Positions 14,478-63,960 of a stretch of DNA of 64,000 bases are shown here, piece by piece. This DNA comes from Eledone cirrhosa (lineage: Eukaryota). How positions within the stretch are numbered: the stretch's first letter is position 1; the number at the start of each line of letters is the position of its first letter. Made by a program: the position numbers and the translations under genes. The stretch is from contig OZ024757.1 in the NCBI GenBank assembly GCA_964016885.1, positions 28,458,001-28,522,000 on the forward strand, written 5' to 3'. The notes under the pieces are model-generated. The model had not been told where the DNA came from, made no database searches, and saw only the letters and a list, made by a program, of their open reading frames with translations.

Positions 14478-14570
14478 ACATTATATTACTCCACCATCAG
14501 TTGAGTGCTTTATATCAGTTATAAAACTTTTAAGTTTGTTGAATTCCAACAAATTAAATATAACCTTTGC
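14478..14570 (+). mobile_element. 3' tail-only copy of the HHR element family at 58214-58591
   Basis: TACTCCACCATCAGTTGAGTGCTTTA...GTTTGTTGAATTCCAACAAATTAAATATAAC aligns with 58517-58585. (TA)n on both sides. Confidence 0.6.
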
Positions 14571-14632
14571 ATATATATATATATATAGTAAGAATATTTT
14601 CGAAACAGCGAGTGGGTTTGAAATTATTAGAA

Positions 14633-14703
14633 ATGTAAGCTATCGCCGTATTTTGACTAAATAAATTTAATTTCTTTAGTCAAAATACGGCGATAGCTGA
14701 CAT
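14633..14703. repeat. Fold-back palindrome between (TA)n tracts
   Basis: 29-bp arms ATGTAAGCTATCGCCGTATTTTGACTAAA / TTTAGTCAAAATACGGCGATAGCTGACAT with one mismatch. Confidence 0.85.
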
Positions 14704-14813
14704 ACATATATATATGTTAAGTATTTCCGAAGAAAAAGCAAAGGAAAAAAGAGTGCTCTATGTATAGAACAGAGCTATTTAATTAGAAAGTGAACAACAC
14801 AATATATAACTAT

Positions 14814-14879
14814 TCTATTACCAAAGGTTTCAGGACCCTAGGCAATATTACCATACGTCTAGATCATTCATCAGACAGA
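14814..14879 (-). ncRNA. Putative type-I hammerhead ribozyme in a (TA)n-flanked insert (14716-14886)
   Basis: Minus strand: TCTGT-CTGATGA-[GATCTAG...CTAGGGTC stem II]-GAAA-CC TTT GG-TA-ATAGA. Predicted GUA cleavage site. Confidence 0.65.
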
Positions 14880-14904
14880 GAGGTTATATATATATATATA
14901 TATA

Positions 14905-15132
14905 TCATCATCACCATCAATTAATGTTCATTTTCCACGCTGTCATGGGTTAGAGGGGTTCTTTCATTAGAGGCAAGTCGAGTCAGATGTCCGTGTCTTG
15001 CTCATACAGAACTGTTTCTGGCTAGATTTCTACAGCCAGATGCCCCTTCCGAACACCAACCACATTTGCAGTGTGTGCTGGGTGCTTTTTGTCATGACAC
15101 CCACACGACCACTTTACAGTGTGGGTTGGATG
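14905..15132 (-). mobile_element. SINE family B 3' part
   Basis: TTTCTACAGCCAGATGCCCCTTCCGAACACCAACCAC...ACCACTTTACAGTGTGG with a (CAT)n tail at the left. Confidence 0.65.
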
Positions 15133-16809
15133 CTATATATACACATATATGTACATACTCATATATACATACATACACACATACACACGTATATATATAT
15201 ATATATATATATATATATATATATATATATATATATATATATATATATATATATATATATATATACACACACACACATATATATCTCCATCATCATCATT
15301 TACCACCACTTACCCTGCTTGCAAAGATATATATATATATATATACAAACACACACACACATCTCTCCACCCTTTCTCCTACTTTCTTCATTTGCTTCTC
15401 TCTACACCCTCCTCCTTTCCTTTTCTCATTCTTTCTCTCTTTCCTCCTCTCTCACTCTATTCTGAAATTTCTGGACCAAAATCATGTTTTTGTGTTTTTC
15501 ATTAAGGTTTGCTAATTGATTCATGATAGGTTTTGTTAATTGTCTTTATATTGTGTTGTTGCTGGTGGTGGTGGTGGTGGTGGTGGTGGTGATGGTGTTG
15601 ATAGTGATGGTGGTGGTGGTGGTATTGTTTTCGGGTGTGGTGGTGTTTGGAGTAGTAGTAGTGTTGTTGTTAATAGTGGTGATGGTTATTGATAGTGGTT
15701 TGGAGTAGTAATTGTTGTTGTTGTTGTTGTTGTTGTTTGGAGTAGTAATTGTTGTTGTTGTTGTTGTTGGTGTTTGGAGTAGTAATTTGGCTCAGTCTTG
15801 TTTGAGCGATGGCCATCTTATCTTTTATTGAAACATATTGTATCTAAGACTATATTTATGAAATGTGTTCTTTGTTTTTAAAGATTTAGTGTTTGATTTG
15901 ATGGGGGTTTGACTGCTATTTCTAGTATCTCAGTTGACCATATAAATGTTCCTTAGCTGGTTCTTCAACAATAGAGAGTAAATAGGGTTACCAGATTTTC
16001 TAGAAATAACAACCCAAATCCTTCAAATCACATCTTACTCTCTTAAAAAGGGGAAGGACATGCTAGACAGTAACATCCTAGATATACAAAATGATAGGAG
16101 AGGGCCATGGTTGGAAAGTCTTTGAACATATGTCTGCTAGATCAAGGCTGACCCAGGATTAAACAATCTGTTGTTTGGTTTACCCATTTGCTACCAACAT
16201 ATCAGAAACCAATTCTGATTCTATGAAACAAAACCACTGATGGTGGTGTTGGTGATGGTGGTGGTATTGGTGAGATTGGGGGTAGTAGTTGTTAGTGGTG
16301 TTGGTTGGTGGAGGCGATGGTCTTATTCATGGAAATGGGAGTGGTTGTAGTGGTGAGGGTGATGTATGTATTGGGGGTTATAGTTGATAGTAATGGTAGT
16401 TTGAGGTGGAGGTGTAGAGTAGTTGTCTTTGAAATAATTATTGCGATATTAAACATTGCTTTCCGGTTGATTCTGGTTGATTCCAGTTGATTATGGTAGC
16501 TTTGGCAGTGACACGGAAATTATTGTGGGTGGCACCTTCCCAGTCTCAGACAGGAATTACTGACAGGATCTCATCATCATCATCATTGTCATCATTACCA
16601 CCACCACTACCATCATCATCACAATTATCACTATCACAACTATCATTGTCATCATTGTCACTACCATCATTACCACCACCACTACGTCCCCCACCAGCCC
16701 CATCATCATCATTTTTACATCTACCTTTCCAATGGTGATACATTAACAGAGTTGATAGAGCATTGGACTAAATGCCTTTCAGCTTTTGTTGTGTTTCTCT
16801 GCAGTGACA

Positions 16810-61652: not shown

Positions 61653-62084
61653 TCATTTGTTTCGGACTGGATGTTGTGGTACCAACATAACTTTACATAT
61701 ATATATTTTATATATAACTTTTATACATAACTTTACATATATATATATATATTTATAGAGAGAGAGAGAGAGAGGGAGAGAGATAAACAGATAGATAGTA
61801 TGATATAGATAGATAGATCGAGAGAGAGAGAGAGGGGTGTCGGTAGGGGAAGTATGTGTAATTGAGAGAGGGGGGAGAAAAAGAGCAAAAGAGAAAGAGG
61901 TTGCAAATTGATTATTATCATCTCTGTGGCAAATCGTCAGGATTGACAAACAGTTGAGAGATAATTTGATAGTTTAATTAACCAGTTAATTATAATTAGT
62001 ATTTGGCTTAACATTGTAAATGTACAACAAAAATGCATTTCGGTCACTTGGGACATGCCCTTTGGCTTTTGCCCATTCAGTAGC

Positions 62085-62795
62085 TGGTACTAACAGGGTT
62101 CAGATGATATACATTACCTTCAGGTTGCAGTTTTTTCTCCCACTGAGCCATGTTCCCCTTGTATATCCTAAGAACAGACTTCATATACTTCCTCCTCAGG
62201 CCCCAGTGTTTCTTGAATTAAGCTGTTCTCCTTGTATAAATATATCCTAACAACAGAATTTACATAGTCCTTCTTCAGGGCACAGTTCGTCTCTAATTAA
62301 CCCTTTAGTATTTACATTACTCTATACATCCTATTATAATTTCATGGTAAAGGCTTTACCTCAATAATCATCTCACATAATATTGAATCTATGATATTTT
62401 GATATTATTTATTTTGAGAACAATACCTTAACATCAGTATGAGCAACCAGATAAGGCCGGTTTAAATGCTAAAGGGTTAAGGTATGTACCTAACAACAAG
62501 ATTCACTTATTTCCCTTTTAGGTTGCAGTGTCTTCCTGAGGTATATTTTCCCTGTATATAATCTAACAACAGAGTTTACATATTATACCTACAGTTTACA
62601 ATGTCTCCCTAACTGAGGTTTCTCCTCCCTTGTATGTATATATCTTGACAGCAGGGTTCACAAACTTCACTTCCAGATTGCAGTGCCTTTCTAACAGAGG
62701 CCTGTCCTGTCCCCTTGTATATTATCTAATAACACTCCACCTACAGATTGCAGTGTTTTCATAACTAAAACCTGTCGCCTTGTATATATCCTAGG
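62085..62795. repeat. Degenerate ~80-90-bp array interrupted by a MITE
   Basis: Recurrent CTAACAACAG..TT.ACAT....CCT.CAGGTTGCAGTGT...CCTTGTATATATC. Confidence 0.6.
62301..62476. mobile_element. piggyBac-type MITE (family P, internal deletion)
   Basis: TTAA|CCCTTTAGTATTTA...TAAATGCTAAAGGG|TTAA. Confidence 0.85.
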
Positions 62796-63562
62796 CCATA
62801 TTATTCAGAAGCCTAGGGGTGCTCCAAGGACTAGAGGCTGATGAAATATTTTTTCTTCTTTTGCTGTAGTGGGATGAAAGATTGAAGTACTAGAGTTTGT
62901 GGGTGGGTGGGTGGTGGTGAGTTATTATTTTTGTCATTGTTATTGTCATTGTTATTATTGTGGTTTTTATCTGTTCTTGTTTGTCGTTTTCTATTCCCTT
63001 CCTTTCCCCTGATCCAATTATCTAACCTCACATCTAGCAATAACACCACAATAAACTGAAGTAAATAATGCATGTAGACACACACAGACATATATGCATA
63101 TATATATACACACACACACACACATATATATTTATATTTATCTATACATACACACACATATATATTATTATTTATGCACACACACATATATGTAATTATA
63201 TATATATATATATATATATTTATACACACACACACACACATAATATTTGTACAAAGATGTCCATTGTATATAGATATATACATTGTATATATAACATTTT
63301 CAGCATATAATCATAGACAGTAGAGGAAACACTTATATTTACATACCTAACAACTTAGATATTTAGAATATAATAGATCCCACATCAGATTTGATGGTGT
63401 AAAGCGATTTCTATATCTACAGTGATTTATGGATGTTCTTTGGAAGGGGTCCATCAACATATTCAAGTTAGAGTCATAGATCACATTAGATGGTTAATTT
63501 AATTATAATTTATTAATTTGTTTGATGCAACTCTTGATTGGGAAATACATCATCATTATCTG

Positions 63563-63645
63563 TGGATTGGCAGTATCAGTAGAGCGTCGAACAACATGCT
63601 TAGTGGCATAGAGTTGTGGCCGTTTACGTTCTGAGTTCAAATCCC
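63563..63645 (+). mobile_element. SINE family A head only
   Basis: TGGATTGGCAGTATCAGTAGAG...GTTCTGAGTTCAAATCCC, truncated right after the B-box. Confidence 0.7.
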
Positions 63646-63731
63646 CTGTGTGTATGATGTTGACGGTCGTGAGAATGAATACTCAATACCAAAGTAGAGT
63701 TTAGATATTCGTTATTATGGCTAAGTGATGG

Positions 63732-63784
63732 GTTTTGTTACTCTAGAGTTTCACCTGTGAACTCACAGCATCATCAGACAAGAC
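63732..63784 (-). ncRNA. Putative type-I hammerhead ribozyme (element about 63650-63786)
   Basis: Minus strand GTCTTGT-CTGATGA-TG CTGTGA GT TCACAG GT-GAAA-CTCTAGAG-TA-ACAAAAC. Stem III is a perfect palindrome. Tail has ACTC...TATTGAGTATTC. Confidence 0.75.
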
Positions 63785-63795
63785 AATATATATAT

Positions 63796-63960
63796 ATAGG
63801 AAAAAGTATGACCCCGACGGCAGAGCTCAAGCCGTTTCGAAACGGCTTGAGCTCTGCTGTCGGGGTCATACTTTTTCCTATTACTCACTCTACTACCCTA
63901 AGTATTGAGTACTCTGGTGCGTTATGGTCCATCTGGTTCCTTACCACATTTCCTTTGTTA
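63796..63960 (+). mobile_element. Fold-back element centred on an HHR half (loopless palindrome 63796-63881)
   Basis: 43-bp arms with one mismatch, symmetric about TTTC|GAAA. GAAA-CGGC...GCTG-TC is an HHR stem III with a GUC site. Tail TATTGAGTACTC. (TA)n flanks. Confidence 0.75.

Follow-up and report, generated by a model that had tools for sequence, protein, structure and literature searches.

Why do so many hammerhead ribozyme repeats in the Eledone cirrhosa genome carry the same short hairpin shortly before they give way to (TA)n? The question is raised by 64,000 nucleotides (nt) of contig OZ024757.1, here called the window, in whose positions all coordinates are given. A sequence-only reading had listed eight sites in it at which GAGTRY pairs with ACTC, and took them for a 3' stem-loop shared by otherwise unrelated ribozyme families, acting in cis and apart from the ribozyme in recognition or priming by a reverse transcriptase (RT) or an endonuclease. 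We find that the hairpin belongs to Penelope-like elements (PLEs) of the Hydra clade, that it is duplicated in their 5' untranslated region (UTR), and that insertions end 2-12 nt before either copy. The hairpin is therefore likely a start signal, telling a telomerase-related enzyme where copying begins.

All eight sites are present, within ~20 nt of the positions assigned to them, and seven have (TA)n at 33-62 nt downstream, close to the 35-60 nt claimed; the eighth, 63677, has no (TA)n within 120 nt. The proposed ACTC/GAGTRC pairing is real and is one part of a larger structure. The motif is a bulged RNA hairpin, RCUC-helix-loop-helix-UH-GAGY-RC, in whose stem a 2-nt 3' bulge and an upper helix, both missed at first, are joined to the plain 4-bp ACUC/GAGU. 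A strict descriptor of it, composed after the data had been seen and controlled with reversed sequence and random positions, was run on both strands of the window and of 100 stretches from arbitrary positions (1.064 Mb in total). It gave 122 matches, compared with 18 in reversed sequence. A (TA)4 run begins 28-72 nt downstream of 82 of the 122 matches, as against 1 of the 18 reversed ones and 1339 of 21280 random positions (6.3%), an enrichment at this position that agrees with the original suggestion. Type I hammerheads were sought by structure in the window and in 1.0 Mb at arbitrary positions, with 103 matches and 1 in reversed sequence; the lower threshold used for family assignment gave 111. 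The hairpin stands ahead of the first TA run in 25 of the 111, and 46 stop within 75 nt; an antisense hairpin was found at none of the 111. The claimed spread across ribozyme families holds to that extent, families 4, 5, 6 and 10 (16 matches) being without the hairpin. Two sites had also been tied too closely to a ribozyme: 14487 has none upstream on its strand, the ribozyme at 14874 lying on the minus strand with a hairpin of its own (14753-14775), and at 63887 only part of the ribozyme is kept.

Long copies of two motif-bearing families led upstream to degraded open reading frames (ORFs) that are not of the Neptune or Poseidon type, and a search with the C-terminus of these ORFs retrieved intact frames of 739-750 codons. 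The family-1 protein is a single ORF of 737 amino acids with YRDD at 352 and YVG at 630 (an RT, then a C-terminal GIY-YIG-type endonuclease), DKT at 118 instead of DKG, RWR at 37, a CxCX5C linker at 596, CxxC at 694 and CxH at 721; RWK is seen in locus L438. The traits DKT, RWK, CxCX5C, CxxC and CxH are those of the Hydra clade in its description (PMC8557442, section 11), and the canonical hammerhead in the pseudo-long terminal repeat (pLTR) and the (TA)n insertion expected of that clade are both present. By these ORF motifs, with the published proteins compared by eye, the carriers are Hydra-clade PLEs, so that the families first called unrelated are members of one clade. The family-1 unit measures ~3.7 kb, with 3741 nt from ribozyme to ribozyme in L212 and a long 3' UTR; a length under 3 kb is general in Hydra PLEs as a tendency and no rule (PMC8557442). 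The RT core has a weak alignment with a Neptune-type ORF (E 2e-7), the closest named protein relatives come from a cephalopod, and no relatives were found in viral contigs. Pfam gave no RT or GIY-YIG match for the Hydra proteins, including the L211 ORF; the clade is thus easily overlooked although it is very abundant in this genome, and the hairpin offers a marker for it. Six of the eight sites were tied to Hydra-clade PLE ends, 59478 and 63677 falling outside that link. ORFs retrieved through Pfam GIY-YIG, which we take from their motifs to be Neptune- or Poseidon-like, were rejected as partners, their 3' and 5' regions being without the hairpin among the matches listed. Also rejected were ORF links of the 59478 and 47914 families in L434 and L435, which are nested insertions split by TA runs. 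One very abundant Hydra family (L221) has many intact 713-codon frames and a ribozyme core that reads CAGAAGA in place of CUGANGA. A Neptune-type family (L164, L174, L176) has two ends ~34 nt apart, no Hydra hairpin and a small palindrome at the long end.

In the carriers the order is ribozyme, 40-70 nt, spacer, copy 1 of the hairpin, spacer, copy 2, ATG. Six of eight intact family-1 loci have it in full, with 49 nt after the ribozyme and 19 nt before the ATG, and the remaining two are truncated within the 5' region; the same twin-hairpin anatomy was seen in a second family and in the 63887 family. What had been placed at the 3' end is thus a duplicated 5' UTR element. Family-1 copies elsewhere stop either just ahead of copy 1 (the short end) or just ahead of copy 2 (the long end). 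A second copy past the long end was predicted for seven further families and then checked, and five of them proved to have it, followed by a Hydra ORF: family 2 (11 of 12 fetched loci), the 38795 family (6 of 12 loci, as a variant with an extra bulge and a long loop), the 40366 family (2 of 3 loci), the 47914/20996 family (4 of 4 fetched loci, the spacer being common to 84 of 87 matches) and the 14874 family (second hairpin in 2 of 3 loci, ORF in 1). With an earlier strict descriptor the count of copy 2 had been too low; the one used in its place makes no demand on the upper helix.

The hairpin reaches well beyond this genome. An alignment of 61 related proteins led to 77 metagenome and 18 genome-bin loci, presumably host DNA; 59 of the 95 have an ATG and at least 100 nt upstream, and 49 non-redundant ones were left after removal of near-duplicates. 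Within 160 nt of the ATG, 44 of these 49 5' UTRs carry the hairpin and 29 carry two copies (antisense strand, 4 of 49; shuffles, 1.2). Single-copy cases are partly contig ends or variants, and five have none. Copy 2 ends 13-41 nt ahead of the ATG, and the copies are spaced 55-83 nt apart. By eye, four of six published Hydra consensi contain the hairpin (Hydra-2_Amil, Hydra-1_Ajap and, as variants, Hydra-2_Ajap and Hydra-1_Crog), and Hydra-1_Ajap has it twice ahead of the ATG. On this comparison of sequences, the bulged hairpin occurs across Hydra-clade PLEs of many aquatic animals. The 18 contigs of bacterial genome bins with Hydra elements (L308-L325) come from animal hosts and are probably host contamination.

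The hairpins of the other animals define the fold. Of 73 such hairpins, 71 have GCUC/GAGC as their lower stem and 2 have GCAC/GUGC, with ACUC/GAGU an extra variant contributed by E. cirrhosa; the bulge is UU, UC or UA in 70, and AC comes next in 72. In the 2-nt bulge register, pair 5 forms in 71 of 73 (expected 56; C-G 48, U-A 22), pair 6 in 52 of 73 (expected 29) and pair 7 in 42 of 62 (expected 24); excess pairing above the bulge appears only in this register, the others giving chance values. Two length-matched alignments, of 20 and 14 rows picked by loop length, were scored for covariation in a way that takes no account of kinship; among 500 shuffles 3 and 0, respectively, scored as high, and no slid structure did. 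Loop length ranges from 4 to ~75 nt with the helix kept. The pairing thus covaries, as had been anticipated, and supports a cis signal apart from the ribozyme. Recognition or priming by the RT is the best reading of that signal; the sequence-only reading was right in this respect and mistaken about its placement and the relatedness of its carriers.

The position of the insertion ends points in the same direction. End mapping covered six families with a full-length reference, at loci combined from arbitrary stretches and search results; plain local alignment overran the TA-like spacers, and another mapping was used instead. Among 329 aligned copies, 23 read through copy 2 and 243 have a mappable TA junction. 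These ends lie at -12 to -2 from a hairpin in 223 of the 243, 140 before copy 1 and 83 before copy 2, although the copies are 67-102 nt apart; as the loci are of mixed origin, the ratio of the two should not be read as an estimate for the genome. The junction intervals have in common a stretch around -3 to -9, where UA-like letters are common to spacer and (TA)n target. In six further families 57 of 156 ends fall before copy 1 and most others form a long-end cluster. In other animals 15 of 24 ended alignments stop within -12 to +1. For most of the misses the reference came from a different family, and of the TA-flanked ends 12 of 13 fit (counted by eye). The informative distance is the one on the 5' side, of 2-12 nt; the gap of 35-60 nt on the 3' side is the distance between the copies, and the hairpin visible in a tail is the unused one. 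The ends also correct the partner arm of two sites: since the short ends of the 47914/20996 family, which is one family, fall 8-11 nt before a distal ACTC (47957; 20969), that arm and not the adjacent one is used. For 40366 the arm is located at 40322. The 47914 family often ends in (TC)n and then (TA)n (L371-L378).

One could object that the hairpins serve translation control, ribonucleoprotein assembly or a promoter, and that ends fall nearby only because U/A-rich patches match the (TA)n primer. The closeness of copy 2 to the ATG, the microhomology at junctions and, in one family, an extra cluster at another UAUA patch would suit this explanation. Yet the whole region is U/A-rich and nearly all mapped ends use the two patches 5' of hairpins, and the kept helix under loops of such different length speaks against a double-stranded DNA site; we hold this explanation to be highly improbable.

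We favour instead, with fair confidence, the view that each hairpin is bound by the RT-endonuclease and sets where target-primed reverse transcription starts internally, in the U/A-rich spacer ~3-9 nt 5' of it; its binding, its part in priming and the RNA nature of its active form we infer. The template would be a read-through transcript of a tandem array, and would therefore bear the 5' UTR of the next unit at its 3' end. The protein would attach to a hairpin, the endonuclease would nick (TA)n, and the 3'-OH of the nicked (TA)n would pair with the spacer. A start before copy 1 would yield the short end and a start before copy 2 the long end; the additional 55-100 nt of the long end, which contain copy 1, would be the PLE "tail", one repeat unit. 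The hairpin in use would never be copied into its own insertion. A wider version of this proposal, to which we lean only slightly, is that the hairpin recruits and registers the PLE RT from the 3' side of the start, that the PLE tail results from the duplication of this hairpin in tandem, and that the hairpin is a portable tag of 20 nt: RNA of any kind placed 5' of the tag could be copied into (TA)n by a telomerase-related RT, and the tag itself would stay uncopied.

If the hairpin instead directed RNA cleavage, termination or transcription start in the spacer, the RT would begin at the resulting RNA 3' end by ordinary target-primed reverse transcription. Some 5' junctions do lie in the same spacer, and read ends in RNA sequencing of the PLE Poseidon_Ac fall on its start sites (PMC11167929). 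However, ~89 of the first 100 listed of 426 5' junctions, and 48 of 59 copies with copy 2 (both by eye), run upstream through the spacer, and Poseidon_Ac initiates internally on longer RNAs (PMC11167929), which makes this course of events highly improbable. In an early sample of 12 loci most 5' ends seemed to begin at copy 2; larger counts reduced this share.

Initiation set by an RNA hairpin must also be weighed against a hairpin acting as single-stranded DNA, recognised by the GIY-YIG endonuclease in a transposition intermediate or an existing copy, with a cut in the TA-like spacer 5' of it fixing both ends. The spacers do resemble the (TA)n target, and the minority of 5' junctions in the spacer would fit. 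The tail is needed for endonuclease recognition in D. virilis (as summarised in PMC11167929), and tails have been ascribed to endonuclease-mediated resolution (PMC8557442). Against this, the ends of Poseidon_Ac coincide with RT start sites mapped in vitro (PMC11167929). On the sense strand G-U exceeds A-C by 11 to 4, a weak sign against the complementary-DNA strand that does not separate RNA from sense DNA. We regard the DNA explanation as unlikely.

Several observations weigh against initiation positioned by the hairpin. In the 59478 family 25 of 110 ends form a third cluster at -17 to -20, so that distance to the hairpin is no strict ruler, and neither this family nor family 8 yielded a second copy or an ORF, despite long ends. 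U/A microhomology smears junction positions by 2-6 nt. As the lower stem is near-invariant, its pairing rests on few changes, and the hairpin sequences are not phylogenetically independent. About 11 of the first 100 listed of 426 5' junctions, and 11 of 59 copies with copy 2, have their 5' junction no more than 18 nt upstream of copy 2, which the model does not cover, and there is a small excess at -3 to -7. Finally, Poseidon_Ac starts inside an AC-rich stem-loop within its ORF, whereas the Hydra ends lie in U/A-rich spacers, and it starts at RNA not homologous to the cut DNA.

Table 1. Hairpins and hammerheads of the window.
Feature	Positions	Strand	Remarks
Family-1 fragment consisting of a tail only, with hairpin copy 1 and no ribozyme upstream	14488..14508	+	(TA)n follows after 62 nt
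Hairpin copy 1, GCUC/GAGC-AC variant, overlooked in the sequence-only reading	14753..14775	-	second copy and ORF found for the family
Type I hammerhead core, goes with the 14753 hairpin	14819..14874	-	hammerhead scan
Aged member of the 47914 family: hairpin copy 1 (distal arm), degenerate ribozyme	20969..21010	+	
Hairpin with 5-bp upper helix, degenerate ribozyme upstream	34382..34409	+	
Hairpin copy 1 with 1-nt bulge; ribozyme core ~38861-38890	38797..38818	-	family with variant second copy and ORF
59478 family: hairpin copy 1 with a single substitution; ribozyme core 39102-39140	39054..39074	-	
Hairpin copy 1, long loop	40322..40373	+	family with second copy and ORF
Hairpin copy 1 (distal arm)	47916..47957	-	family with second copy and ORF
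Type I hammerhead core; inverted partner 48263-48307 (+)	48030..48074	-	
Hairpin copy 1, G-U variant, 59478 family	50958..50978	+	
Hairpin copy 1, 59478 family; ribozyme core 52402-52440	52467..52487	+	
Hammerhead in an inverted copy of family 1, which breaks off at the short end right ahead of the hairpin	58266..58313	-	
Long-end copy of family 1: hammerhead 58411-58458, hairpin copy 1 with mutations 58518-58539	58411..58539	+	
Hammerhead 59414-59452 and hairpin copy 1 59480-59500	59414..59500	+	no ORF or second copy found for the family
Degenerate hairpin	60365..60384	+	
Hammerhead 63739-63777 and hairpin 63679-63700; no (TA)n downstream	63679..63777	-	
Hairpin copy 1 after a fold-back 5' end with partial ribozyme	63887..63912	+	family with second copy and ORF

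Other features of the window may be mentioned beside those in Table 1. The insertion at 14481-14572 is a tail alone, beginning near the short-end position and stopping at the long end. Very short fold-back copies invert within or just ahead of the ribozyme at 38820-38990, 59355-59470 and 63795-63880. The 40366 element lies between the arms of a 159-nt inverted repeat that belongs to another repeat family (39838-40615), and a partial tRNA-like match above the Rfam score at 50430-50487 is possibly the head of a short interspersed nuclear element (SINE). The window is rich in microsatellites, to which most of the best 150 of 293 weak Rfam matches listed for it belong, none being a ribozyme or the hairpin described here. 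In four loci Rfam gave no gathering-score match, and a single 241-nt 5' UTR gave two chance matches. No description of the hairpin was found in the open-access literature searched. The Hydra clade, the tail and internal initiation were already known; the hairpin and its duplication are new as far as the open literature and Rfam show, in keeping with the lack of a named description in the sequence-only reading.

Among known systems, stringent LINEs (long interspersed nuclear elements) and their partner SINEs, such as eel UnaL2, have a 3' stem-loop, a small hairpin recognised by the RT of the element near the start of copying. That stem-loop lies 5' of the start and is copied, whereas the Hydra hairpin is 3' of the start, uncopied and duplicated; the LINE/SINE trait of a hairpin in every insertion is absent here, since 140 of the 243 mapped ends stop before copy 1. 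In hepadnavirus epsilon and the boundary elements of telomerase RNA, a bulged or helical RNA docks the RT at a set register. We claim no sequence likeness to these, and the primer predicted for Hydra elements is nicked DNA next to the hairpin, with no priming in the bulge.

Non-LTR retrozymes and minimal PLE hammerheads (PMC4209133; bioRxiv 10.64898/2026.07.22.740005) likewise form, in the available parts of those reports, many short, variable type I families from PLE ends. Retrozymes are tandem ribozyme units, whereas here we see mostly 5'-truncated ends of ORF-bearing elements, and no downstream hairpin is named in those parts. With the Hydra clade (Craig et al. 2021, PMC8557442) our elements share, as far as the accessible sections show, the ORF motifs, the pLTR ribozyme, (TA)n targeting, inverted 5'-truncated copies and a one-sided tail. 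These sections describe no such hairpin or duplication, and family 1 is longer than is usual in the clade.

The closest parallel is Poseidon_Ac, whose RT starts internally at two sites bounding the tail and requires RNA 3' of the starts (Frangieh et al. 2024, PMC11167929). Both there and in the Hydra families two preferred 3' ends lie downstream of the ribozyme; in Poseidon_Ac the start sites that bound the tail lie there, and its target is AT-rich (PMC11167929). It differs in belonging to another clade, in a tail of 30-40 nt as against 55-100 nt here, and in that its binding motif was not identified (PMC11167929). How PLE proteins recognise their RNA, and how two alternative insertion ends arise, have been open so far, the sole in vitro study having only bounded the binding region. 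By likeness to Poseidon_Ac, the Hydra hairpin is a candidate for the RNA needed 3' of the start sites. Being short, conserved between animal phyla and set in a constant geometry relative to the two ends, it is directly testable with the intact ORFs of this genome, and it bears on how relatives of telomerase define the start of their template.

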